Assembly: GCA_040876925.1 (NCBI GenBank)
Contig: JBBDOS010000005.1
Span: 40,815 to 104,814, forward strand
Direction: 5' to 3'
DNA from: Candidatus Saccharimonadales bacterium
GTDB taxonomy: Bacteria > Patescibacteriota > Saccharimonadia > QS-5-54-17
DNA length: 64,000 nucleotides
Shown: piece after piece, positions 2,452 through 20,614 of the stretch
Layout: every line of letters begins with the position of its first letter
Position numbering within the stretch: the first letter of the stretch is position 1
Translations under genes and position numbers: made by a program
Notes under the pieces: model-generated
The model's input: the letters and a program-made list of their open reading frames with translations, nothing else
Told to the model about the DNA's origin: nothing
Database searches by the model: none

Positions 2452-3060
2452 TTAAAACCAATCAAATATAATGCCGGCACCTTCCCTAGCCTGCTCTAAT
2501 TGATAAAGCATTATTAGCCCAGCTATTAGTGATGATAAGAAAACAAAGACAACCACCCAGAAACGCCTAGAACTAAATACACTGACCTTGTAGCTAGAAG
2601 GTTTTTTTGTCTTTAGCTGCTGCTTTTGCTTCTTTCGTCTGCTTGATCTAGCTATATCAGAGAAATCGCCAGACTGATCTATATCTTCATCTAAGTCCAT
2701 CCGACTGCTATATATATCCTCTACTGAGAAATCTTCTTCCTCTACTTGCTGCAATTTGGACTGTGTTTCATCATCTTTAACTACACCCCTATTACCATGG
2801 TCGCTATCTATGTTGTCTTTGCCTGATATATCAGCTGTGGCTACACCTGAGCCTGCACCAGATCCTGTTCCATAGCCACCACCGCCATAGCCAGTTGTAC
2901 GAATAACCTTCTCCTGCGAGCGAGCTTGTTGCGGTTGGGACTTATTAGTATCTGATTTGGCGGATAGCCTGCTATCTTGACTGCTTTGCTTAGCTGGTGA
3001 TTTCTTGCTGTCTATTTTGATATCTATTTTCTGAGAATCTTCACTGCTCATCACCATCAT
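2452..3060 (-). CDS. Hypothetical low-complexity, Ser/Gln/Gly-rich protein with a single C-terminal TM anchor
   Basis: ORF track 202 aa. Disordered N-terminal region with a GYGGGGYGTGSGAGSG stretch and a C-terminal hydrophobic helix FWVVVFVFLSSLIAGLIMLY. Overlaps the tpiA stop by 20 nt (MMVM alternative starts). No recognisable family. Confidence 0.4.
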   Translation of the reverse strand: MMVMSSEDSQKIDIKIDSKKSPAKQSSQDSRLSAKSDTNKSQPQQARSQEKVIRTTGYGGGGYGTGSGAGSGVATADISGKDNIDSDHGNRGVVKDDETQSKLQQVEEEDFSVEDIYSSRMDLDEDIDQSGDFSDIARSSRRKKQKQQLKTKKPSSYKVSVFSSRRFWVVVFVFLSSLIAGLIMLYQLEQAREGAGIIFDWF

Positions 3061-3829
3061 CCGTTAATAGGTTGGTTGTTTGGACTATCTTGGTAAATTC
3101 ATGATCATTAAGAGAAGCTCCACCGACCAATAGACCGTTGATAGAGTCAATATTTAGATAGCTACCGGCACTATCACCGTTAACGCTGCCACCATATATA
3201 ACGCGTATGCCACTAGTAGCATCAGCTCCAAACATCTGAGCGGTTGTAGATCTAATGGTTGCTGCAGCTGATATAACATCGTCTTCTTTGGCATTTTCGC
3301 CAGTGCCAATAGCCCAAACCGGCTCATAGGCGATGATAATATCCTTAGCTTCTGAGGCTGTAATCATAGTTAGCCCAGTAGATAGCTGATCGTTGATCAC
3401 TTGAGTAGTCTCACCGTGATGTCGTTCCTGCGCGGTTTCTCCAACACAAACTATTGGCGTAATACCGCTGCGCAAAGCTGCAGCTGTTTTTCTAGCTACC
3501 ATTTCATTAGTCTCACCAAAGTTATGTCGCCTTTCAGAATGACCGATGATAGCATACTGAACTAAATCTTTAACCTGAGAGGCTGATATCTCTCCTGTGT
3601 AGGCTCCTTCATCAGCGAAATATATATTCTGCACACCTATAGATAGACTTGGGGAGGCTGAGGATACATCGTGCAGAGCGATAGCTGATGGGCAGAGCAC
3701 TACTTCAGCTCTCTCAACTAAATCAGCTAATGAGTCTTCTAGTTTTTCCGCTAAGTCACGAGACTGGTTAACGCTTAAATGCATCTTCCAGTTGCCTATT
3801 ACTATTGGTTTTCTTAAGTCGTTTGCCAT
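3041..3829 (-). CDS. tpiA: Triosephosphate isomerase
   Basis: IVIGNWKMH, GHSERR and AYEPVWAIGTG signature motifs; 262 aa. Confidence 0.93.
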   Translation of the reverse strand: MANDLRKPIVIGNWKMHLSVNQSRDLAEKLEDSLADLVERAEVVLCPSAIALHDVSSASPSLSIGVQNIYFADEGAYTGEISASQVKDLVQYAIIGHSERRHNFGETNEMVARKTAAALRSGITPIVCVGETAQERHHGETTQVINDQLSTGLTMITASEAKDIIIAYEPVWAIGTGENAKEDDVISAAATIRSTTAQMFGADATSGIRVIYGGSVNGDSAGSYLNIDSINGLLVGGASLNDHEFTKIVQTTNLLTDDGDEQ

Positions 3830-7895: not shown

Positions 7896-10028
7896 TTCTG
7901 ATTCGCTACCTATATTAAACCCAAACCCAAACACCGAACCCTTGCCTTCTTCTGAGGAGAAGATTATCTCCCCACCCTGTATCTCTATAACCTGCTTGGC
8001 CATATATAGCCCTAGGCCAGTGCCATCTGGTCTAACTGTCTTAGCGTTCTCGGCCCTAAAGAATTTCTTAAACAGCTCTTTTTGAGCTGCTTGTGATACA
8101 CCAATACCGTTATCCTCTACCCTAAACTCAACTGCATTATCTTGACTTTCAATATATACATCTACCTTACCTTCTGGAGCATAGTAGATAGCGTTATCAG
8201 TAAAGTTCATGACTACCTGGCGAATTTTAGTTTCATCTAATACTAATTTAGGAATCTTCTCTTTTGGTTTATGTAGAGTTAACTTAACATTCCTGGCCTC
8301 AGCTTGGCGATGTAGCTGATTAACCTCTTCCTCGACTAGCTCAACCATATCAATTTCTTCTTTATCGATAGTTAACTTACCAGTACTAATACGAGAAACA
8401 TTGAGCATATCCGCTATTAGATGAACCATCCTTTTGGAGCTAACAAAAGCTAAGTCTATGAACTCGGACTGCTTTTTAGACAACTTACCGGCATCACCTT
8501 CTAGGAGCATGGACAGATAGCCTTTGACAGTAGTTAATGGTGTGCGCAATTGATGAGAGGCCATCGAGATAAACTCATCCTTAGCCTCATCAAGCTTAAC
8601 TAAGCGCTGATTGGTTTCCCGTAATTTAGCTGTAGCGTCCTCTACTTCTTTCTTCAAAGTTTCCGAGAAGGCTTGTATCTCCTGATAGCTCTTAGCGTTC
8701 TCTATAGCTACTGCTAGCTCTTGGGAGAGTATTTCTAGTAAGTTAATGTCTTGTTTAGTATAGATAGTGCCAGAACGCTTAGTACCAAGTAAGAGATACC
8801 CCACTAACCCTTCATTAGTAGCCAGTTTAACGGCTACATAAGTATTCATATCATTTAGGGTGCTCTCAACTTCCTTGCCACTAACTTCGTCTAGTATAGT
8901 TATTTTATCTTCTAACTTCTCTAGATCAGTAATATCAACCTTTATCTCTTCGCTACTACCGATATGGGTCGCCTTATATATCCCATCATTGCCAAGTACA
9001 ATTAGACGACCAAACTCTACTTTGAGCGTATCGACAATAATATCTAAGCTATCATCTAGTAAATCAAAGCTATTGCTTTTAGCTACAAACACTTTACCTA
9101 GACGGTTTAATACATCCTCTGAATCATAGCTGTCCTGATAAAAAAGTCTATTAGTTAGTTTATCGAAAAACCGTTTCAGTGGCTGGAAGGTAAAGACTAA
9201 GAATACTGCAGAAATAGTATAGAAGGCTTGTTGCAAAGTCGAGGTGCCGGTATCTGGGAAGAACTGGTCGACAAAACCAAAGACAAAGTAGCCATACACC
9301 AAGCCAAGAGTTAGTATGACTAGAGCATAAGCTAAGGAGCGAGCAACGACTAGTCTAATATCAAAGAGTCGATGGCGCACTATTACATAAGCCATAGTAG
9401 CTACAAACAGTATTACGGTAGGCGCACCAAATAATATAGTGTATTGAGTCATGTCTAAAGCTACAAACACAAAATTTGAAAATAGGTTAAGCAGTACGGT
9501 CACTACACTTCCCCATATAATAAGTTTAATTTGGGCGGATGCTCTTAAGGAATGTTTGCGTTTGCGAAACAGAATAATAAAAGAAGATATGAAATATATG
9601 GCAAAGTACAGACCGAGCAATACGTACAAAGCACCAAATTCATCAATCTGAGCCCCTAACCCCTCATAATGAACACTTCTAATCATTTGGGGGCTAAAGG
9701 ATGATAAAGACAGCGCTATTGCTGGTATGGCAAGTAATGCATATTTTAACTTGCTTATCTGAGAGCTGAAAGGAAATATTAGGCTAAAATACAAATAGAA
9801 AAGAGGTATTAAGGAAGCGAATAATATTGCTACCCTAATAGCCAATAAACTATTGGCTATATTACTAGCAGTATCTGCAAACAGTAGACTAGTAGACCAC
9901 CCAAGTATCAATACGACTGTTATAGCAAACAGTCTGTTGTGAGCTACTTTGGGGTTTTGTAGGTAGACAAAAAAAGCCAGCCCCGCAAGTGTTAATATTA
10001 CTGGTATGTATATTAGGAAGTTTATCAA
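7854..10028 (-). CDS. Sensor histidine kinase with a large N-terminal polytopic membrane domain, a central GAF-like region, and HisKA and HATPase_c domains
   Basis: About 330 aa of multi-TM N-terminus. H-box SHQLRTPLTTVKGYLSML. G-box DNGIGV...GTGLGLYMAKQVIEIQGG. Confidence 0.85.
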   Translation of the reverse strand: MINFLIYIPVILTLAGLAFFVYLQNPKVAHNRLFAITVVLILGWSTSLLFADTASNIANSLLAIRVAILFASLIPLFYLYFSLIFPFSSQISKLKYALLAIPAIALSLSSFSPQMIRSVHYEGLGAQIDEFGALYVLLGLYFAIYFISSFIILFRKRKHSLRASAQIKLIIWGSVVTVLLNLFSNFVFVALDMTQYTILFGAPTVILFVATMAYVIVRHRLFDIRLVVARSLAYALVILTLGLVYGYFVFGFVDQFFPDTGTSTLQQAFYTISAVFLVFTFQPLKRFFDKLTNRLFYQDSYDSEDVLNRLGKVFVAKSNSFDLLDDSLDIIVDTLKVEFGRLIVLGNDGIYKATHIGSSEEIKVDITDLEKLEDKITILDEVSGKEVESTLNDMNTYVAVKLATNEGLVGYLLLGTKRSGTIYTKQDINLLEILSQELAVAIENAKSYQEIQAFSETLKKEVEDATAKLRETNQRLVKLDEAKDEFISMASHQLRTPLTTVKGYLSMLLEGDAGKLSKKQSEFIDLAFVSSKRMVHLIADMLNVSRISTGKLTIDKEEIDMVELVEEEVNQLHRQAEARNVKLTLHKPKEKIPKLVLDETKIRQVVMNFTDNAIYYAPEGKVDVYIESQDNAVEFRVEDNGIGVSQAAQKELFKKFFRAENAKTVRPDGTGLGLYMAKQVIEIQGGEIIFSSEEGKGSVFGFGFNIGSESESKDQHQDKEDNSA

Positions 10029-10125
10029 TTATTTAATATAAGCTCATTAAACTACTATATGTAGTAAGTCTATCATAAGCACAGTTTTATCATTATAGAC
10101 AACAACATTTTACTGTATATACAGC

Positions 10126-10731
10126 CTAGAACTCCATCTTGCCTGCATAGTAATGTTGAGAGCCTTGGTGCTCAAGCTCAACACTGCCAACCCCACTATT
10201 ATTTATAGCTCCGGCTACTAATTTTGGCAGAAACTGATTATTGCCTTCACTACAATCAAAAGAAACAACTGTATCTTGGCTATCTCTATCTTTCCAATAC
10301 TTAACCATGTATTTAATTAACTCAGAAGCATAACTACGTTCATAATTACCCTTCTTTGTTAATATTGCCATGAAATAAAGAAAATTATCATTAGCGAAAG
10401 CCTCTGGATATTTAGCCTCATAATATTCCTGGCTGATCCATGGAAAGACTCTCAAGTCAGTGCCAAAAAGACACATAGACACAATTTCCCCCTCTTTTCT
10501 GTAAACAAACTTAAGTACTGTGTCATCTTGCATAGCTTCTGTAAACTCTTCGTAATTGAAGCTTTGCCTGCAAGGATTATTCAAATTTAGCTCCCTAAAT
10601 CTCTCATCATATGCACTCCACCACTCATCTATCTCATAAGGGATAAGAATGGGTTCTAGACCAACGGTTTCTCCAGGCTTTACTTCTTCCTCTAGTCGTT
10701 CTATTGCTGGTAGTATTGGTTTTTCTTCCAT
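10126..10731 (-). CDS. Hypothetical cytoplasmic protein (201 aa)
   Basis: ORF track. No confident family recognition. Confidence 0.4.
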   Translation of the reverse strand: MEEKPILPAIERLEEEVKPGETVGLEPILIPYEIDEWWSAYDERFRELNLNNPCRQSFNYEEFTEAMQDDTVLKFVYRKEGEIVSMCLFGTDLRVFPWISQEYYEAKYPEAFANDNFLYFMAILTKKGNYERSYASELIKYMVKYWKDRDSQDTVVSFDCSEGNNQFLPKLVAGAINNSGVGSVELEHQGSQHYYAGKMEF

Positions 10732-10803
10732 AATTATCTCTCCTTATACGTTAATAAAGTTGCGCGGGTGCATGCTATAGGTATGTTAGAAGCATGCACC
10801 CGC

Positions 10804-11256
10804 TTAGAGGATTAGTCCTGCAATCCCTGCATACTGACCAACGAAGCCAATCGCAAAGATGGTTGAGCTAGCAGCTGCTAGCTTATGCAGGCTATCTCCT
10901 CTGCCAGAATACCGTATTGCAAAGGTGGTTAGTATTCCGCCCGCAAGCCAAGAGGAAAGTACAAAACCTATTACACCCCCTAGGCTTAAGGTCTTTTTAA
11001 GCACCCAGCCATGTGGCCTGTTTTGCTGTTCATCTAACCATAGAGCTAATCTTGACTTTTGGCTCTTGTCCCTCTCATAAATACGCACCAACTTGATAGC
11101 AACAATATAGCTACCTGTTCCGTATAGTAAGAAGAACAATCCAAAAGTAGTTAATGGTCCAATTATTGCAGCCGAAGCTACTATCGGAGCCGCCAACAAT
11201 ACGTCATCCCAAATGTAGACAATAACTATACTGATCACTGCTATGAGTTTACGCAT
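10804..11256 (-). CDS. Hypothetical integral membrane protein (150 aa, about 4 TM)
   Basis: ORF track, hydrophobic segments. Confidence 0.45.
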   Translation of the reverse strand: MRKLIAVISIVIVYIWDDVLLAAPIVASAAIIGPLTTFGLFFLLYGTGSYIVAIKLVRIYERDKSQKSRLALWLDEQQNRPHGWVLKKTLSLGGVIGFVLSSWLAGGILTTFAIRYSGRGDSLHKLAAASSTIFAIGFVGQYAGIAGLIL

Positions 11257-11331
11257 AGTCTACCTCTCTTTGTGCTTGACAGTGTGTCACTAATTATAGT
11301 TATACAATATTAAACAACCGACAGTCAAGTA

Positions 11332-11835
11332 CTAACTCTTTGCTGCAGTGTCGTCCCAGCCGCTAGTCTGATATGCAGCTATAACCAAAGCGGAAACTGG
11401 ATGATCTTCACAAGCTATGCCGCAAATCTCTGTTTTAATGGAGCCAAAATCACAATCTTTTCGATACTTCATCATAGACTCTAGGCTATCATTAATACTA
11501 TCTTTTACTGAATTCTTGCTAAATCCTTCATGTTCTACAAATAAACCTTTGCCCGTATTCTTGTCTTGAACCCAACCCATGCCAGCCCAAGCTTCAGTAT
11601 TTGGAGTAATTGTGCGCAGTTCAGCCATAACAACATAGAGCCTATCCCCCCATCCCCCTGACAAATCTTTAGTTTTAATCTTTCCCTTATTAACAACTAC
11701 TTTAGCGCCTGGCGGGATCACTGAACTAAGACGTATTAGATTGTAGTTATCTAAACCGACCTTATTCAGAGCTTTATCAAAGGCGGCTAGTCCAGTGCTA
11801 GCCTTAGCTGTTGCTGATGCTACGAGAATTTTCAT
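11332..11835 (-). CDS. Pyruvoyl-dependent arginine decarboxylase (PvlArgDC/PdaD)-like protein
   Basis: 167 aa, typical size for the family. NLIRLSSVIPPGA resembles the PdaD self-cleavage site (Ser-Ser, generating the pyruvoyl group). Confidence 0.5.
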   Translation of the reverse strand: MKILVASATAKASTGLAAFDKALNKVGLDNYNLIRLSSVIPPGAKVVVNKGKIKTKDLSGGWGDRLYVVMAELRTITPNTEAWAGMGWVQDKNTGKGLFVEHEGFSKNSVKDSINDSLESMMKYRKDCDFGSIKTEICGIACEDHPVSALVIAAYQTSGWDDTAAKS

Positions 11836-11913
11836 ATTGGCTTTATGTTTGTTTTTACTTTATTATTAATACTGTTACATTATAACAAATAGTAACCTTA
11901 AACAAGTAGTATT

Positions 11914-12288
11914 ATGGCTAAAGCAAAAATAGCTCTCATAGAAGACGACCTAGCAATAGTCCAGATGTATCGGATGAAATTCGAAGCCGAGGGGTTTGAT
12001 GTTGCTTATGCCAGTGACGGACAACAGGGATTAGAAGTTGTTAAAGAATTTAAACCAGATTTAGTACTGCTTGATTTAATGATGCCGATTATGGGTGGAG
12101 CTGAGATGCTAGAGATTATGAGAAAAGAAGATTGGGGCAAGAATATTAAGGTTATCATCCTAACTAATATGGGTGAATCAGAAGCTCCTGCCAATCTCAA
12201 AGATTTAGGTGTAGACTCCTTTATAGTTAAGGCCGATTTAACCCCTAAGCAAGTAGCCGAGAGAGTTACTCAAGCACTTGAATCCTAA
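11914..12288 (+). CDS. Single-domain response regulator (receiver only, CheY-like)
   Basis: IALIEDD, DLVLLDLMMP, KVIILT, K at the conserved position. 124 aa, no output domain. Confidence 0.85.
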   Translation: MAKAKIALIEDDLAIVQMYRMKFEAEGFDVAYASDGQQGLEVVKEFKPDLVLLDLMMPIMGGAEMLEIMRKEDWGKNIKVIILTNMGESEAPANLKDLGVDSFIVKADLTPKQVAERVTQALES

Positions 12289-13130: not shown

Positions 13131-13207
13131 TGGAGGGCCTGGTGGGATTCGAACCCACGACACGCGGCTTAAGAGGCCGCTGCTCTAACCAACTGAGCTA
13201 CAGGCCC
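13131..13207 (-). tRNA. tRNA-Lys (anticodon CUU)
   Basis: Reverse complement GGGCCTGTAGCTCAGTTGGTTAGAGCAGCGGCCTCTTAAGCCGCGTGTCGTGGGTTCGAATCCCACCAGGCCCTCCA. Anticodon loop CTCTTAA. Confidence 0.85.
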
Positions 13208-13253
13208 ATGAACTCTTAAGGTCATGAACTAAGATATTGTACCAGATTTACTC

Positions 13254-13330
13254 TGGCGCCCCGGGTAGGATTCGAACCTACGACACCTGGTTCCGAAGAC
13301 CAGTGCTCTAATCCACTGAGCTACCGGGGC
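13254..13330 (-). tRNA. tRNA-Arg (anticodon UCG)
   Basis: Reverse complement GCCCCGGTAGCTCAGTGGATTAGAGCACTGGTCTTCGGAACCAGGTGTCGTAGGTTCGAATCCTACCCGGGGCGCCA. Anticodon loop CTTCGGA. Confidence 0.82.
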
Positions 13331-14754: not shown

Positions 14755-15114
14755 CTAGTCTTCGAAAGTTAGTTGACTAGGCTCTGATGGCTTATCATCA
14801 CCAGCATCTGTTGTTTTTTGCTCTCTAGGATCTGGAACAGATCTACCCTCTGGTAGTGGATTACCGTCTGGGCCTATAACCGAATTTCCTAATGGTTTAT
14901 CCTTTTGATCTTTATCTAGCATTCTGCGCCAAGCTGCCTTGTTTTCAGCCTGTACTTCTTCTGGAGTTAAGGGTCGTGAGTATGGCCCATCCTCTACTGA
15001 ATCCACTGCAAAACCACCTAGAGATGCTTCTGTTACGCCAGTTTGTTCAGCTCGACGGGCTAGTTTAGCTGCTTCTCGTTCTTGTTCGTGGGATGATTGT
15101 GATCGTTCTGACAT
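14755..15114 (-). CDS. Hypothetical acidic/disordered protein (119 aa), somewhat GC-richer than neighbours
   Basis: ORF track only. Confidence 0.35.
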   Translation of the reverse strand: MSERSQSSHEQEREAAKLARRAEQTGVTEASLGGFAVDSVEDGPYSRPLTPEEVQAENKAAWRRMLDKDQKDKPLGNSVIGPDGNPLPEGRSVPDPREQKTTDAGDDKPSEPSQLTFED

Positions 15115-15175
15115 ATATCATACTATAGCATAATACTTATGCTTTTGCAAGATAGACTACCGATTAAAATCTCGT

Positions 15176-15496
15176 CTAGGTGATGTCTCTTGGCTCGTTA
15201 TTGTTTGAAGTTAGGAGGTCTGATAGCCATATAACTACCATTCCAATAACAGCATAGACCAACATAGCGAAAAGTGTAGAAAACTCTATTTCAAAACCAG
15301 GTTGAACTGCTCGTACTGGAAAGATACTGCGAAATGGTTCTAGTAGCTGATCGGTTACCCCATATAGCCAAGTGACAAATTCACTAGCTGTGTTGGCGTT
15401 AAACAGTCTTAATATAAAGCGTAGCCCTAGGAAAACCTCTACTATGCCTACGAAAAAGTTTGTAAGGCTTTCTACTAATCTAGTGTTTAAATTCAT
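15176..15496 (-). CDS. YggT-family membrane protein (cell-division associated)
   Basis: RFILRLFNAN..FV..LYGVTDQLLEPFR motif and two TM helices; 106 aa. Confidence 0.6.
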   Translation of the reverse strand: MNLNTRLVESLTNFFVGIVEVFLGLRFILRLFNANTASEFVTWLYGVTDQLLEPFRSIFPVRAVQPGFEIEFSTLFAMLVYAVIGMVVIWLSDLLTSNNNEPRDIT

Positions 15497-15605
15497 AAAC
15501 TAACCTCCTAGTTTTACTTATACTCTAATTTTAACACCTACATCAAGCCATAATCAAACAACCCCTGGAATAATCCAGGGGTTGTTTGGGTTGTATCTTA
15601 TTATA

Positions 15606-15680
15606 TGGGGTGCCTGAAGGGAATTGAACCCTCGTCACCGCCGCCACAAGGCGGAGCTTTACCATTAAGCTACAGGCACC
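15606..15680 (-). tRNA. tRNA-His (anticodon GUG) with genome-encoded G-1
   Basis: Reverse complement G-GTGCCTGTAGCTTAATGGTAAAGCTCCGCCTTGTGGCGGCGGTGACGAGGGTTCAATTCCCTTCAGGCACCCCA. Anticodon loop TTGTGGC. The extra 5' G pairs with discriminator C73. Confidence 0.85.
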
Positions 15681-16162
15681 ATAAATCCCTCTGACTCATT
15701 ATTATAGTTATGTACTAGAAAATGGCAATTGTGACATAGCCATATCAGGTTTGATATCTTGTTATTGTCCCTGTTTCTATCTTTGTGGTGCACCGCTAAC
15801 ACCCTACTATCCACACACTCGCACCTTAAACACTCCCTGGGAGTATTGGTTCTAGTTAGAATATTTCTATACGAGGCTTTGCCGCCACTCCAATTAAAGT
15901 GATTCTTTCCGGAATATATAGCCTTGTTCCTCCATAGAGTTTGGCAAGATTTGCTGCAAAAAAAGTTACCGCTTTTAGACCTATTCTGGTCCTTGATACT
16001 TCTATACACAGTTTTATTGCACATATAACAAGTAACGTCTTTACCGGTCCTCTGAGCTCTATATTGACAATTCTTTGAGCAGTACTTACCCCAACCTTTT
16101 TTTATATGGCTTGGCTTAGCATAAAACATTTTATTACAAAACAAATATCCGGTTTTGGGCAT
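15665..16162 (-). CDS. HNH endonuclease with an N-terminal Cys-rich zinc-finger-like region, embedded between tRNA genes
   Basis: HHKDRNRDNNKISNLIWLCHNCH HNH motif. Multiple CxxC pairs. The 3' end overlaps the tRNA-His 5' region by 16 nt. Confidence 0.75.
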   Translation of the reverse strand: MPKTGYLFCNKMFYAKPSHIKKGWGKYCSKNCQYRAQRTGKDVTCYMCNKTVYRSIKDQNRSKSGNFFCSKSCQTLWRNKAIYSGKNHFNWSGGKASYRNILTRTNTPRECLRCECVDSRVLAVHHKDRNRDNNKISNLIWLCHNCHFLVHNYNNESEGFMVPVA

Positions 16163-16194
16163 ATTTAGGCTTCACTTTCTATCATAGTTAACAT

Positions 16195-16271
16195 TGGCAC
16201 CCCGGGCAGGATTCGAACCTGCGACCTGCGGATTAGAAGACCGCTGCTCTATCCAACTGAGCTACCGGGGC
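16195..16271 (-). tRNA. tRNA-Arg (anticodon UCU)
   Basis: Reverse complement GCCCCGGTAGCTCAGTTGGATAGAGCAGCGGTCTTCTAATCCGCAGGTCGCAGGTTCGAATCCTGCCCGGGGTGCCA. Strongly resembles argU-type tRNA. Confidence 0.82.
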
Positions 16272-16306
16272 ATATATAATTTATTGTTTTAGTTTTTGAT
16301 GCTATT

Positions 16307-16381
16307 TGGTGCGGGTGGAGGGAGTCGAACCCTCGTCTTCAGCTTGGAAGGCTGACATAATAGCCATTATACGACACCCGC
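16307..16381 (-). tRNA. tRNA-Gly (anticodon UCC)
   Basis: Reverse complement GCGGGTGTCGTATAATGGCTATTATGTCAGCCTTCCAAGCTGAAGACGAGGGTTCGACTCCCTCCACCCGCACCA. Anticodon loop CTTCCAA. Confidence 0.82.
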
Positions 16382-16470
16382 ATACTGAGGCCATCCATAT
16401 TATAACAGATATAATTTGGATAAAATGTTACAATTACCTCGTAGTTAAGATTAATTAGAAGGAGATATTT

Positions 16471-16929
16471 ATGCAACTTCACTCTCCAGTATTTAACCAC
16501 GGAGAAAGAATGGATAGTCGGTTTACCTGCCAAGGTGATAATATCAGTCCACCTCTAGAGATAGTAGATGTTCCTGAAAAAGCTCAAAGCCTAGTGTTGA
16601 TATGCGATGACCCAGATGCTGCTACCGACCCAAACGGCCCTGGAGATATATTTGATCACTGGGTGCTATTTAATATATCCCCAAAAATTAATAGTATCGC
16701 CGAAAACTCTACCCCCCCATCAGCTACTCAAGGTATTAATAGTAAACATGAATTAGGCTGGGTAGGACCTTGTCCACCTACTGGCGAGCATCGCTACTTC
16801 TTCAGACTCTATGCTCTTGATAGCAAATTAGATTTAGAAGAAGGAGCCGATAAAGAAGAAGTAGAGTCTGCCTTAGCAGGACATGTTTTAGTCCATACTG
16901 AACTAGTAGGTACTTACGAAAAAAATTAA
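16471..16929 (+). CDS. YbhB/YbcL-family phosphatidylethanolamine-binding (PEBP/Raf-kinase-inhibitor-like) protein
   Basis: CDDPDA, HWVLFNI, GPCPPTGEHRYFFRLYALD motifs. GGAG ribosome-binding site upstream. Confidence 0.8.
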   Translation: MQLHSPVFNHGERMDSRFTCQGDNISPPLEIVDVPEKAQSLVLICDDPDAATDPNGPGDIFDHWVLFNISPKINSIAENSTPPSATQGINSKHELGWVGPCPPTGEHRYFFRLYALDSKLDLEEGADKEEVESALAGHVLVHTELVGTYEKN

Positions 16930-17021
16930 ATAAAAGAAAAGGAAACTATTTACCTATTTGACTTATGTTTTCTTAGCTATAGAATAATCACTTAAGGAAT
17001 ATAATAAGGAGGAACTATATA

Positions 17022-17438
17022 ATGGATACTAAAGATTACGGACCAAAACCATACGTAGTAGATATAGAAGAGCTAACTACTTCTAATAATAAATTCAGGG
17101 TAGCTAAATGGACTGGATCTAATATGCAGATGACTGTTATGTCTATACCTGCTGATGGAGAAGTTGGATTAGAAGTACATAATGACCATGATCAATTCTT
17201 ACGTATAGAATCAGGAGAAGCTAAAGTCGTTATGGGACCCAGTGAAGACAATCTAGATCAAGAATGGGATGTTCAAGACGACTTTGCTATATTCGTACCA
17301 GCCGGTACTTGGCACAATATTATCAACTCTGGTGATGACGACTTAAAACTCTACTCTATATATGCTCCACCTGAGCATGCTCACAGTACTATGCATGAGA
17401 CTTTTGAAGAAGCAGAAGCTGACGAGCACCATCAATAG
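17022..17438 (+). CDS. Cupin-domain protein
   Basis: GEVGLEVHNDHDQFLRIESGEA ... VPAGTWHNIINSGDDDLKLY (two cupin motifs). AAGGAGG ribosome-binding site upstream. Confidence 0.7.
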   Translation: MDTKDYGPKPYVVDIEELTTSNNKFRVAKWTGSNMQMTVMSIPADGEVGLEVHNDHDQFLRIESGEAKVVMGPSEDNLDQEWDVQDDFAIFVPAGTWHNIINSGDDDLKLYSIYAPPEHAHSTMHETFEEAEADEHHQ

Positions 17439-17513
17439 TAGTCTATTGACTGAACTATACCATCCATGTCATCATTAATATCAACGATAAGCAATATGGA
17501 TATACAATAAATT

Positions 17514-17975
17514 ATGGCGGATGAAATACAACTACGAGGTGGATCAGAAGCAGAGAATGACTCCTTCACTGGCGCCCAAAGAGAAGTTACTGTCGATACT
17601 ACTAATAAGACTCTTAGAGTACATGATGGTACAACAGCCGGAGGATCTAAATTAGCTACTCAAGACTATGTTGGCGATAATACCGCCTCTTTGACAGTTG
17701 AGAACGAATCGGGTACCAGCTACACAGTGGTGGCTGCCGATTCGGGAAAAGTGAAGCGGTTTACAGACGCTTCACAAGTAACAGTGACGCTACCAGATGG
17801 ACTGGCGGTCGGCACAATTGTGCATTTACTGTCGGCAGGTGCTGGAGGATTATCTATTGAGTCAAATGCTTCTTCGACAGTAGATCCGAATGATCCGGGT
17901 ACGGTAGATGAGGCAGGTGAGGCATCAGCGTTAGTAGTAGCTACTGACACCTGGAACGTACAAGGAACAGCATGA
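17514..17975 (+). CDS. Phage tail-fibre N-terminal-domain protein. The GC content rises along the gene.
   Basis: N-terminus MADEIQLRGGSEAENDSFTGAQREVTVDTTNKTLRVHDGTTAGG matches the widespread conserved N-terminal domain of phage tail fibre / receptor-binding proteins (IQxRRG...GE...DT..L+xxDG pattern). The stop overlaps the next gene's start (ATGA). Confidence 0.6.
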   Translation: MADEIQLRGGSEAENDSFTGAQREVTVDTTNKTLRVHDGTTAGGSKLATQDYVGDNTASLTVENESGTSYTVVAADSGKVKRFTDASQVTVTLPDGLAVGTIVHLLSAGAGGLSIESNASSTVDPNDPGTVDEAGEASALVVATDTWNVQGTA

Positions 17976-19201
17976 GTGTTGCGCTTCTTCGCCGTCGTGG
18001 AGTGTTGGCTGCTGGCGGGGGTGGGGGTGCACAGTTCGCTGTCGGCAGCTTTACGGCAGACACATCTACCGGGACGCAGCAGTTCGCTCACGGTCTTGGG
18101 ACGACTCCGAAGGCGATCTTCTTTTTCGGTTCGGGGTCTGCTGCGGTGTCGGGGACGTGGGATGCGCACGTTCATCAGGTAGTCGGGTTTAGTGATGGCA
18201 CGACTTCTTATGCAGTTTCTGGTGCGTCGGAGGACGCGGTAACGACGTCGAATACAGAGCAGCGTATTGCGGCGAAGTGCATCACGATTATTAGTGATGG
18301 CGAGGTGGTGATCGGTGAGGCGGATTTGGATTCGTGGGATGACACGAACATCACGGTGGATTGGACGGACGCGCCGGTCACATCTGACGAAATTATGTTT
18401 TGGGTTGTCGGTGGGGAGGGTGTTGAGGCGAAAGTTATGAACTGGCAATCACCTACTTCCACAGGGAATAAGGTGATTGACACAGTTGGTTTTCAACCTG
18501 ATTTGGTGCTACACGCCACGGTCTACGCGGCGTCGTCAATCCCGGACTCTTCTGGGTATATGGCTACAGGGTTTGGTGCGATGGATGGTGCTGGTGGACA
18601 GTGGACGAACGCTGTTGCGGCACAGGCTAGTCAGTCCACGAGCAACACGGGCCGATATCAGCGCACCGATAAGTGCATCTCAATTTTACAGGCTAATGGC
18701 ACTAGCCTTCCGGTAAATGAGGAGGCCGAGTTTGTGTCGATGAATTCGGGCGGTTTCACGGTCGATTTTACGACTGCGAGCGCGGGCGAGTGGAACTACA
18801 TCTCTTTGTGTATCAAGGGTGTCAACGCCAAAGTGCTGTCAGTCTCCGAAAGCGGCTCAGACACCCAAACCATCGACACTCTCACCTTTGAGCCATCCGC
18901 GCTTCTGACAGCCAATACTAGGCAAGCGGGGAATAGCGGACTTGTTGCTACGGATGCGTTGTTCGGAATAGGAGCAGCCACCGGAGATGCCCAACGCGCT
19001 ACTGCGCAAAGCGACCGCAATGGGCAGGCAACAACCGACGCGGAGTCGCTGTGGAAAAACAACCGGCACATTATCATGCCCGAATATGGGTCAATCAAGG
19101 CGGAAGCATCACTCACGTCGTTCAACGCAGACGGATGGACCGAAGATTGGGCGACCGACCCTGAAACAAATGTGCGTTACTACATCGCTTTAGGAGCCTA
19201 A
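17972..19201 (+). CDS. Large Gly/Ala/Thr/Ser-rich hypothetical protein, probable tail-fibre/receptor-binding partner, on a GC-rich island
   Basis: 409 aa at about 55-58% GC in an otherwise AT-rich locus. Translationally coupled to the upstream tail-fibre-domain gene. Followed immediately by GC-rich hairpins. Confidence 0.55.
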   Translation: MSVALLRRRGVLAAGGGGGAQFAVGSFTADTSTGTQQFAHGLGTTPKAIFFFGSGSAAVSGTWDAHVHQVVGFSDGTTSYAVSGASEDAVTTSNTEQRIAAKCITIISDGEVVIGEADLDSWDDTNITVDWTDAPVTSDEIMFWVVGGEGVEAKVMNWQSPTSTGNKVIDTVGFQPDLVLHATVYAASSIPDSSGYMATGFGAMDGAGGQWTNAVAAQASQSTSNTGRYQRTDKCISILQANGTSLPVNEEAEFVSMNSGGFTVDFTTASAGEWNYISLCIKGVNAKVLSVSESGSDTQTIDTLTFEPSALLTANTRQAGNSGLVATDALFGIGAATGDAQRATAQSDRNGQATTDAESLWKNNRHIIMPEYGSIKAEASLTSFNADGWTEDWATDPETNVRYYIALGA

Positions 19202-19417
19202 TAATGCCCCTCTCTACCGCCATCATCAACGACGGACAGATTGCTGTCCCTGCCCACCAACTGAAAGCCGCACTCACCTTGTGGGCAGCAGGGAAAGGCA
19301 CCCGCCCCCAAGCGACATCGACACGCTCATCACAGAACACTCGTTCCTAATGAATATAAAGCAATAAAAAAACCCAGGGATGTTTATCTACGATCGGGAG
19401 TATTAATAACATTTTAA

Positions 19418-19494
19418 TGGAGGGCCTGGTGGGAGTCGAACCCACGACACGCGGCTTAAAAGGCCGCTGCTCTAACCAACTGAGCTACAGGCCC
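19418..19494 (-). tRNA. tRNA-Lys (anticodon UUU). Near-duplicate of the tRNA-Lys(CUU) at 13131-13207.
   Basis: Reverse complement GGGCCTGTAGCTCAGTTGGTTAGAGCAGCGGCCTTTTAAGCCGCGTGTCGTGGGTTCGACTCCCACCAGGCCCTCCA. Confidence 0.85.
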
Positions 19495-19569
19495 ACATTT
19501 TTTTGAGTAATTTGTTTAAAATTACAGCAGCCTTTATTCTACCTAAGTTGCTGCCCCTGTGGCAACTAT

Positions 19570-20058
19570 TTACCTTGAATTAGCTGCTTTTTTGCGTTTT
19601 TTAGACTTTTCTACTTGATTACGATGATGGATACTATCTATCAGTATTAGTATGGCGGCTGCAAAAGTAAACCAAACGTAATTATCAAGTACCTGCCAGC
19701 CTATTATCGACCTATCCACAATAGCGTTTTGCCAATCAATTGGCAGCACATGGGCAATACTGGATAGGAAGAACAGGGTGAAAACTAGTACGAATATAGT
19801 CTTCCAGATTATATTACCTTTTTTCTGCTTATCTACGCTGTGATTAATACCCAAGATAAGAGCTGGTACAGCTAGTATAATCACCTTGGCTAAGCTCTCT
19901 GGTATGGCGGTTGTGAAATATTCTTCTAAGGGGGTGATTTGCAAAAGAGCTAGGCCGATAAAGACACCTAGAGCTACAAACTTAACGTGGCTTTTGTAGT
20001 GAAGTACTAGAGCGCTAGCGCCTATGACTGTTGCAGCTATGATAAAATCGACATTCAT
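19570..20058 (-). CDS. Hypothetical integral membrane protein (162 aa)
   Basis: ORF track; 4-5 hydrophobic helices. Confidence 0.45.
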   Translation of the reverse strand: MNVDFIIAATVIGASALVLHYKSHVKFVALGVFIGLALLQITPLEEYFTTAIPESLAKVIILAVPALILGINHSVDKQKKGNIIWKTIFVLVFTLFFLSSIAHVLPIDWQNAIVDRSIIGWQVLDNYVWFTFAAAILILIDSIHHRNQVEKSKKRKKAANSR

Positions 20059-20149
20059 TTTGAAAAAACTTTCTTACTTACTATTTAAGCTAAAGCTATT
20101 ATACAACTTATGTTTAATAAATTCTAAGATTCTGAGTTAAAAAAACTGT

Positions 20150-20614
20150 CTATAGAGTTAGTTTTAGACTATCTCCTACTGATATATCATGCTGATTAGT
20201 AAACCCAGCGTTAACTTCTAAGACATATTTAACAGGTTCTGGTGACGTGATAACTTCAGGATATGATGCTGGTAATAGATTATGGGTGATATCAACAACC
20301 TCTAGATTGCTATCTATCCAGATAATATCTATGGCAAAATTCATATCTAACATATGAAAGCCGTGTATACCTGGCTGATCAAAAACAAACAACATGCCTT
20401 CCTTATCTGACAATGACTCTCTACCAGATAAGCCTTGAGACCTAGACTCAGCAGTATCTGCTATCTCAACTTCAACAGTAACACTATCAAACTCAACCAA
20501 AGATACATCTGAGACGTTATTGGACTGGTTAAGTGGTAATACCCAAGTTAACCAGCCAATAATAGCAGCTAATATGATGGCTGCTATTAAGATGTAGTAC
20601 TTCTTCTCTACCAT
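20150..20614 (-). CDS. DUF192-domain protein with N-terminal signal/anchor
   Basis: GLSGRESL..GMLFVF...GFHMLDM..AIDIIWID..VLEVNAG pattern typical of DUF192 (COG1430). Confidence 0.6.
   Translation of the reverse strand: MVEKKYYILIAAIILAAIIGWLTWVLPLNQSNNVSDVSLVEFDSVTVEVEIADTAESRSQGLSGRESLSDKEGMLFVFDQPGIHGFHMLDMNFAIDIIWIDSNLEVVDITHNLLPASYPEVITSPEPVKYVLEVNAGFTNQHDISVGDSLKLTL

Follow-up and report, generated by a model that had tools for sequence, protein, structure and literature searches.

To our knowledge, the means by which ultrasmall episymbiotic bacteria recognise their hosts are largely unknown, and the candidates so far are only pili and a few adhesins. This analysis concerns a 2-kb islet of phage-tail type in the genome of a Candidatus Saccharimonadales bacterium. 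It occupies positions 17439-19416 of a stretch of 64,000 nucleotides (assembly GCA_040876925.1, contig JBBDOS010000005.1, positions 40,815 to 104,814 of the forward strand), which is referred to below as the window. The islet contains three open reading frames (ORFs), here named p1, p2 and ORF3, and abuts a tRNA-Lys(TTT) gene.

Cultivated Saccharibacteria live on Actinobacteria and require several adhesins; Saccharibacteria are also naturally competent and can be transformed (PMC10633639). Phages of the host can reach the episymbiont as well: the Schaalia prophage Xhp1 attaches to Nanosynbacter lyticus TM7x, inside which a phage structural protein is produced (PMC13578794). The islet can be set beside the distal tail genes of actinophage-type siphoviruses, the Mtd fibre of Bordetella phage BPP-1, tRNA-adjacent islands and the trimeric jelly-roll heads of receptor-binding proteins (RBPs).

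The Islet and Its Phage Relatives

What does the islet encode, and how was it acquired? The ORFs p1 (17514-17975, 153 aa), p2 (17972-19201, 409 aa) and ORF3 (19204-19350, 48 aa) all lie on the forward strand. This is a real, horizontally acquired, phage-derived islet, and it is probably an orphan fragment of a phage tail tip that was grafted behind a gene from the resident fibre-head family. An earlier account of the window made from the letters alone (the sequence-only reading) described two ORFs of 153 and 409 aa that share an ATGA start/stop overlap, by which p1 and p2 are coupled. Both were recovered here; the third ORF, which follows p2, had been overlooked.

Relatives of p2 are found at the distal end of phage tail modules. 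Two such contexts were inspected in detail. In the first (L001) the order is tape measure, Dit, a 348-aa gene, a 266-aa gene, the 410-aa p2 homologue P0002, a 98-aa gene, further genes and an amidase. In the second (L002) Baseplate_J and Tail_P2_I are followed by a 213-aa gene and the 453-aa p2 homologue P0006. Both P0002 and P0006 precede small ORFs and lysis genes, and the contigs of the closest p2 relatives have a GC content of 68.5%. The L001 genes of 266, 410 and 98 aa line up in the same order with the C-terminal module of p1 (C-module, ~100 residues), p2 and ORF3. The C-module is 41.5% identical (E 2e-20) to the C-terminus of the 266-aa protein, whose gene is directly upstream of P0002. 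It is also 35-36% identical to the minor tail proteins Jabberwocky gp38, Madeline gp28 and StorminNorm gp39 of Gordonia phages, in which it again forms the C-terminus. Homology and gene order identify the islet as phage-tail in origin, as the sequence-only reading had proposed.

The C-module goes together with a second feature. A short gene with an Arg-rich N-terminal tail comes next in each of the three Gordonia phages, and in Jabberwocky and StorminNorm this gene lies just before the lysis genes. An Arg-rich tail is found on the next gene at every C-module gene inspected, that is, in 4/4 cases (the window, L001, L005 and L006) and in the three Gordonia phages. The N-termini are MSVALLRRRGVLA for p2, MVARLLRRGVIA for P0002, MRLLRRGIIA for the L005 partner and VTRPLLLRRRGLL for the 471-aa protein of L006, with ...RHRATRRRGG in Jabberwocky gp39, ...RFRAQRKWK in Madeline gp29 and ...RFRASRRRGG in StorminNorm gp40. 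P0006 lacks the Arg-rich motif, and its upstream gene lacks the C-module. This pattern of co-occurrence suggests that the Arg-rich tail of p2 would dock on the C-module.

No operon of the kind found in phages surrounds the islet: tape measure, Dit and baseplate genes are absent upstream and lysis genes are absent downstream. The flanks consist of a PBP and a cupin gene to the left and tRNA-Lys, DUF192 and RimK to the right.

Composition and Codon Usage

Across ~17.7-19.35 kb of the window, GC content climbs from 0.39-0.40 to 0.52-0.58, and the islet accounts for the single 1-kb bin in the 64 kb that exceeds 0.46. Positions 17972-19350 reach a GC content of 0.555 (z = 8.3); background windows of 1379 nt have 0.398 +/- 0.019 and at most 0.446. 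This agrees with the GC jump described earlier. However, raw GC is misleading at this locus because the products of p1, p2 and ORF3 are all rich in Gly, Ala and Thr. Expected values of GC and of GC at third codon positions (GC3) were obtained by recoding each protein with the codon preferences of the window itself. The observed GC/GC3 of p1 is 0.48/0.33, against an expectation of 0.48/0.32. The corresponding figures are 0.55/0.58 against 0.47/0.34 for p2, and 0.60 and about 0.61-0.62 against 0.48/0.34 for ORF3.

The GC content of p1 is thus explained by its amino-acid content with native codons, so that p1 is compositionally native; its GC3 shows only a local bump at codons 51-85. The GC3 of p2 and ORF3 exceeds the native expectation by 0.24-0.28. 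No other ORF of 150 aa or more in the window is an outlier in GC3 as p2 is, the real genes lying at 0.25-0.42. The lasting switch in codon usage is at the p1/p2 boundary, not within p1, and foreign codon usage is confined to p2 and ORF3. The sequence-only reading had taken the whole GC-rich segment to be foreign, which holds for p2 and ORF3 (GC3 0.58-0.62 against 0.34 expected) and not for p1. It had also suggested a recombination junction from the AT-to-GC gradient inside p1; the gradient is no sign of foreign DNA, since p1 matches the native-codon expectation and the gradient reflects amino-acid content.

A 242-aa ORF with a TTG start runs antisense to p1 and p2 (17720-18448, reverse strand). 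It is most likely a shadow ORF of the sort that GC-rich DNA yields; p1 and p2 on the sense strand opposite do have homologues.

p1, a Putative Fibre Adaptor Built from Two Sources

p1 is composed of an Mtd_N head (residues 1-50, 17514-17663), a linker that is disordered in the AlphaFold2 (AF2) model (residues 52-57) and a beta-sandwich C-module (residues 60-153, 17691-17972; AF2 pLDDT >90 for residues 60-150). Residues 5-41 match Mtd_N PF18454 with 55 bits against a cut-off of 26.3 (E 7.8e-15, model positions 1-37/37), and p1 also matches phrog_9648 (tail). The phage tail-fibre N-terminal domain that had been recognised from the N-terminus, MADEIQLRGG, is borne out by these matches. The closest relatives of the head are chromosomal Saccharimonadales paralogues (76-81% identity), and the next closest are found on low-GC viral contigs (60-74% identity, GC 0.35-0.44).

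The C-module has other affinities. It is 62-67% identical to P0041-44, proteins that have no Mtd_N head; the contigs of P0043 are siphovirus-type, with 69% GC, and carry the C-module gene within TTP-TMP-...-fibre modules. Judged by these homologies, p1 is a domain mosaic of an Mtd_N head from a low-GC lineage and a C-module that otherwise sits on headless phage proteins. A look-up of the exact p1 sequence returned no record, and no obvious Shine-Dalgarno sequence precedes the p1 ATG.

p2, a Candidate Tail-Tip Protein, and Its Family

p2 (NCBI locus tag WD061_01965) is a putative tail-tip protein of receptor-binding type. Its model is all-beta (pLDDT 92.5, pTM 0.92), and the Arg-rich N-tail (residues 1-16) is the only disordered part. 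In the model the tail is followed by three jelly-roll repeats at residues 20-149 (18029-18418), 150-283 (18419-18820) and 284-409 (18821-19198), all on the forward strand. The three ~130-aa repeats are also visible as internal high-scoring segment pairs in BLAST. A Foldseek search with the model returned single-chain pseudo-threefold prisms and uncharacterised phage and tail proteins, all with TM <0.4. p2 therefore looks like a single-chain pseudo-trimer of the trimer-type receptor-binding head, an architectural resemblance for which homology is not established.

How widespread are such proteins? p2 and ORF3 have no match in Pfam, PHROGs, NCBIfam, PADLOC or the PDB sequence profile. Comparison of p2 with P0002-P0007 shows 43-52% identity over 91-99% of the length, and p2 is full length and retains the invariant residues of the family. 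An exhaustive profile search returned 11,654 cluster representatives. The idea of a rare family, which had arisen from an initial 38 matches, was rejected, as that low number was a word-index effect. The profile matches delineate a large family without a Pfam match, some members of which carry 2-3 tandem units per protein or lie inside proteins of up to 5,429 aa.

Two viral contigs show further arrangements of p2-like genes. One (L094) carries two in tandem, of 407 and 405 aa (9596-10819 and 10820-12037). In the other (L095), a 44%-GC IMG/VR viral contig, the p2-like gene at 8195-9427 has a GC3 of 0.68 and its neighbours have 0.23-0.37, which indicates that such tips move between phages of different GC.

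ORF3 and the Edges of the Slot

ORF3 has foreign codons, and its homologue is the 98-aa gene that comes directly after P0002 in L001, with 43% identity between ORF3 residues 10-37 and residues 11-38 of the L001 product. The missing C-terminal half gave nothing convincing in any frame, and ORF3 is therefore the truncated remnant of a small gene that sits behind p2-type genes in phages. Two GC-rich hairpins at 19233-19287 on the forward strand, GGACAG/CTGTCC and CTGCCCAC/GTGGGCAG, had been taken for a terminator. Both do form in the minimum free energy fold of 19200-19360, with modest support (z = -2.17; 5/200 shuffles as stable). The terminator role is not upheld: the hairpins lie within the ORF3 remnant, have no T-tract, and are not called as an intrinsic terminator at 19233-19287 by a terminator scan.

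The edges of the slot are AT-rich and have no counterpart in the sister genome described below. The left edge is intergenic (17439-17513) and contains a weak promoter-like match at 17446-17475 (TTGACT-18-CATCAT with TG, 9/12); such sites are not clearly above shuffles. The right edge is a spacer between ORF3 and the tRNA (19351-19417).

A Variable Slot beside tRNA-Lys(TTT)

The assembly GCA_050486185.1, which holds the nearest relative of the flanking cupin, was used as the sister genome. The left flank of the islet is this native cupin gene (17022-17438, forward strand; PF07883; GC3 0.27), with 86% amino-acid identity to P0160 of the sister genome. To the right, ARAGORN places a native tRNA-Lys(TTT) at 19418-19494 on the reverse strand, with its 3' end facing the islet. 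It is followed by a native gene of 162 aa (19570-20058, reverse strand) that is assigned by synteny and ~70-75% nucleotide identity with L096. The two genomes share the order tRNA-Arg, tRNA-Gly, PBP, cupin and then slot on the left, and tRNA-Lys(TTT), a 160-162-aa gene, DUF192, RimK, RimB-like, two GH130, DnaJ and DnaK on the right, with ~75% nucleotide identity in the flanks and the same tRNA-Lys(TTT) at the same relative position.

Between these flanks, blastn homology with the sister genome ends at 17437, the cupin stop codon, and resumes at 19417, the tRNA 3' end. The replaceable unit is therefore 17439-19416, including all of p1. In the sister genome the slot contains UPF0259 and DUF1905 genes of native composition (GC 0.36), and the tRNA-adjacent site is thus a variable slot. 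Att-like repeats were looked for, as was a second copy of the tRNA-Lys 3' end, but nothing beyond the resemblance among tRNA genes came up. Between the syntenic flanks there is no integrase-sized ORF, and no integrase or other phage gene adjoins the islet, whose neighbours are syntenic housekeeping genes. Much of the sequence-only reading survives here: the tRNA-Lys(TTT) abuts the island and is a near-duplicate of tRNA-Lys(CTT) at 13131-13207 (75/77 identical), and integrase, other phage genes and att repeat are indeed missing. The site also behaves as the suspected tRNA-adjacent hotspot, for the sister genome keeps the flanks and the tRNA with other genes between them. The comparison of relatives that the earlier account had recommended shows the islet to be absent from the sister genome's syntenic slot.

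Five further tRNA genes lie within 6.5 kb upstream of the islet, namely Lys(CTT) and Arg(TCG) at 13131-13330 and His, Arg(TCT) and Gly(TCC) at 15606-16381 (reverse strand); synteny with the sister genome extends to the Arg(TCT)-Gly pair. Located 1.3 kb upstream of the islet, a free-standing 165-aa ORF with an HNH motif (15665-16162, reverse strand) overlaps tRNA-His (15606-15679) at the end of that gene, and in the sister genome an HNH gene lies between two Mtd_N genes (L005 2380-2790, reverse strand). It is conceivable that HNH genes are tied to cassette mobility.

A Resident Mtd_N Family and a Parallel Graft

Is p1 the only gene of its kind in Saccharimonadales? The sister genome carries at least seven Mtd_N-headed genes on one contig of 264.5 kb, single or paired among core genes (L33, SecE-NusG-L11-L1, HisRS-Tig-ClpP-RpoBC), with native GC3 and unrelated C-terminal domains. 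A second Mtd_N gene of the metagenome-assembled genome (MAG) studied here is found between a sortase and other envelope genes (WD061 locus-tag prefix, assembly GCA_040904145.1). Genes of the family include L005 1421-2101 (reverse), 3034-3738 and 10001-10549 (both forward), L100 9118-9882 and 10001-10720 (forward) and L012 8001-8669 (forward). The proteins are ~180-255 aa in length and almost the same in their Mtd_N head and neck (…YDEWGRLQVADPxNDTDVANKGYVDG…). The literature searched on Mtd and tail fibres in Saccharibacteria does not describe this family.

The closest full-length relative of p1 is P0040 of the sister genome, which has the same head, a neck and the same C-module, and which is start/stop-coupled to a Gly-rich partner of 286 aa. 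The two genes form a GC-rich mini-island (L005 10001-11409) just upstream of SecE-NusG, with no tRNA adjacent. The GC3 of P0040 is 0.34 in the head and 0.77 in the C-module, and the partner has a GC content of 0.67 in surroundings of 0.33-0.40. P0040 therefore contains a true intragenic junction of native and foreign DNA, such as the sequence-only reading had suggested for p1, and it is seen only there. The window p1 looks like an older, codon-adapted version whose partner has been replaced more recently. A metagenome scan with P0040 for further grafts returned Mtd_N heads only, and a protein search with its C-module returned nothing at 1e-5.

Mtd_N heads also occur in viral contigs. Two low-GC podovirus-like contigs (L014 1973-3782 and L015 512-2327) encode a T7-type tail-fibre N-terminal protein followed by two short Mtd_N-headed proteins. 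This gene order indicates tandem use of Mtd_N heads in real phage tail modules.

Donor and Assembly

Which phage donated p2 and ORF3? The high-GC (68-69%) phage contigs give only short DNA matches in tape-measure and minor-tail genes, all to phages of Gordonia, Mycobacterium, Streptomyces or Microbacterium. As actinophages make up most of the high-GC phages in the searched collection, these matches are weak as donor evidence, and an actinophage donor is suggestive only. A scan of named genomes with a seven-sequence p2 alignment found just three loci, in MAGs of Binatia and Acidobacteriota.

The integrity of the assembly was checked in Logan assemblies of three other runs. The unitigs L003 (17573-19465) and L004 (17971-19271) are each 100% identical to the window, as is L098 (16210-17602), which comes from the same run as L003. 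L099 (16293-17513) has 3 mismatches in 1221. L003 alone joins native-codon p1 (codons 20-153), p2, ORF3, the AT-rich spacer and 48 nt of the syntenic tRNA without a branch. The end of L099 at 17513 and the start of L004 at 17971 fall within one base of the start codons of p1 and p2. These ends at gene boundaries may reflect co-occurring variants or a donor element that shares sequence, or an accident of low coverage.

Origin of the Islet and Rival Explanations

How might the islet have formed? In the reading that we favour, the slot at 17439-19416 would hold an orphan fragment of a phage distal-tail module. p1 would be a small adaptor, with the Mtd_N head as the part that anchors phage fibres to a base structure and the C-module beta-sandwich as the platform that precedes the last tail gene in actinophage-type siphoviruses. 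p2 would be that last tail gene, docked on the C-module through its disordered Arg-rich tail, and its three jelly-roll repeats could form a single-chain pseudo-trimer, the type of head that binds a cell-surface ligand. ORF3 would be the decayed stump of the next phage gene. p1 itself would derive from the resident, multi-copy and codon-adapted Mtd_N family of Saccharimonadales. p2 and ORF3 would have come later, from the phage of a high-GC organism, and would have taken the place of the earlier follower of p1 through recombination close to or at the p1/p2 boundary. The chromosome could have been the site of this exchange, or else a mosaic element that was inserted afterwards. The DNA might have entered by natural competence, or by injection from a phage that also adsorbs to the episymbiont. 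Docking, ligand binding, and the direction and timing of the transfer are what we infer from these comparisons. p1 and p2 are intact and probably expressible as a two-part fibre, which the cell may or may not use.

Several observations weigh against this reading. The donor of p2 and ORF3 was not pinned down in the searches: tblastn with p2 against 50,697 cultured or deposited phage records found no match, the best p2 relative is just 52% identical, and the p2 relatives in named genomes do not belong to the known host group of Saccharibacteria. The GC3 of p2 is 0.58 against 0.71-0.90 in its closest relatives, which points to a donor of intermediate GC or to a gene that has been resident for some time. 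The anomaly of p2 may also have been inherited from a mosaic low-GC phage, and not from direct capture. The proposed docking is based on co-occurrence in seven loci and not on structure. Finally, L098 and L003 overlap by exactly 30 nt (17573-17602) in the most conserved Mtd_N motif. Paralogues share k-mers at this point, which we take to be a graph branch in a k = 31 de Bruijn assembly.

The reading of an orphan tip behind a resident head nevertheless has to be compared with others. One of them goes a step further: Saccharimonadales would graft receptor-binding modules of host phages on Mtd_N heads, and the p1-p2 complex would be a domesticated fibre that recognises the host and attaches to it. 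The pattern does recur, since each of two genomes has it at its own locus and with its own distal partner, and p1 and p2 are intact as well as coupled. The genes of the Mtd_N family are multi-copy and codon-adapted, and lie scattered through the core of a reduced genome, away from phage genes; the grafted modules have their nearest relatives on 68-69% GC phage contigs with actinophage-like tail genes; and a need for several adhesins on actinobacterial hosts is documented (PMC10633639). On the other hand, reading the sequences by eye reveals neither a hydrophobic N-terminal stretch nor any other export feature in p1 or p2, no signal-peptide predictor having been run; no base structure was identified on which the Mtd_N head could dock; ORF3 is decaying; the p2 relatives in named genomes are not actinobacterial; and there are only two instances, the scan for more having yielded heads alone. 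On balance a domesticated host-recognition fibre seems unlikely, and it is somewhat more doubtful still that episymbionts repeatedly reuse the phage tips of their hosts on Mtd_N heads to find and hold the host, with the p1-p2 and P0040 pairs as snapshots of different ages. Alternatively, a Saccharimonadales phage could have integrated at tRNA-Lys(TTT) and lost all but three tail genes. The islet abuts the tRNA 3' end, ORF3 is truncated, p1 has low-GC codon usage, and similar Mtd_N heads (60-74% identity) do occur on low-GC viral contigs. However, such a degraded prophage is improbable, given a segment of just 2 kb with no partial tRNA duplication, att repeat or integrase, and a codon usage of p2 and ORF3 that would not fit a phage adapted to a 40%-GC host. 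Moreover, the sister genome has ordinary native genes in its slot, not phage remains, and its analogous islet is not beside a tRNA.

Could the islet be an artefact of assembly or binning, with a foreign fragment threaded between the repeats of the Mtd_N motif and the tRNA? Unitigs do break in conserved sequence, at the 30-nt Mtd_N overlap (L098 end 17602, L003 start 17573) and at a point inside the tRNA, and others end at 17513 or begin at 17971. A chimera is nonetheless very improbable: L003 runs unbranched from native-codon p1 into the tRNA, identity is 100% in sequences from two further runs, with 3 differing bases in 1221 in a third, the ATGA overlap and the pairing of C-module and Arg tail are biologically coherent, and an independent MAG has the same kind of islet. 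A yet smaller chance is given to an anti-phage decoy, in which an expressed copy of the tip masks the phage receptor or poisons tail assembly. That host-derived phages bind Saccharibacteria (PMC13578794) and that intact RBP-type genes persist without the rest of the phage would suit this idea, which is purely conceptual; no PADLOC defence model was matched, and no neighbouring defence genes are evident. The least probable view is that nothing was transferred and that the GC excess is intrinsic to a native gene rich in Gly, Ala and Thr. Amino-acid content alone gives an expected GC of 0.47-0.48 for p1, p2 and ORF3, which explains p1 fully, but p2 and ORF3 have 0.55-0.60, with GC3 of 0.58-0.62 against 0.34, and the segment is absent from the sister genome's syntenic slot. 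For p2 and ORF3 the third-position excess rules this view out; it holds for p1 only.

Significance

The locus indicates that tail DNA from phages of high-GC bacteria can enter Saccharimonadales chromosomes and persist intact there, behind an undescribed multi-copy family of fibre heads. It is in line with recent work on a host prophage that can bind a Saccharibacterium and express genes inside the cell (PMC13578794). Grafted tips in actual use would give a symbiont a novel route to host specificity; without such use, the locus would still be a clean sign that phages carry genes from host to episymbiont. The locus also points to a large Pfam-less family (11,654 representatives) of putative single-chain pseudo-trimeric tail-tip proteins.

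Comparison with Known Systems

The islet recalls the distal tail gene pair of actinophage-type siphoviruses (for instance Jabberwocky gp38/gp39, Madeline gp28/gp29, StorminNorm gp39/gp40; L001, L006). Both have a C-terminal C-module of ~95 aa upstream and a start/stop-coupled downstream gene with a short Arg-rich N-tail, and L001 has the exact order of C-module gene, p2 homologue and ORF3 homologue. In contrast to the long N-terminal part of the phage protein, the islet has a 50-aa Mtd_N head, and the Gordonia partners are ~200 aa in length, whereas p2 has 409 aa and three repeats. The islet also differs in its location in a bacterial chromosome, with no tape measure, baseplate or lysis gene nearby.

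With BPP-1 Mtd and other Mtd_N-headed fibres, p1 shares the N-terminal Mtd_N (54.7% identity to BPP-1 mtd over residues 1-53). Unlike Mtd, p1 has only 153 aa and carries a minor-tail C-module in place of the C-type-lectin variable domain; p1 has no CLec Pfam match, and no template/variable repeat pair (~100-nt direct repeat) was found within 15000-20200. Like tRNA-adjacent islands and prophage remnants, the islet is located on the 3' side of a tRNA, has a foreign composition (in p2 and ORF3) and is present or absent between relatives. It departs from them in being 2 kb long with neither integrase nor duplicated tRNA 3' end, and in the native left third formed by p1. Finally, p2 can be compared with the trimeric jelly-roll (C1q/TNF-like) heads of RBPs, from which it would differ in carrying its three units in one polypeptide.

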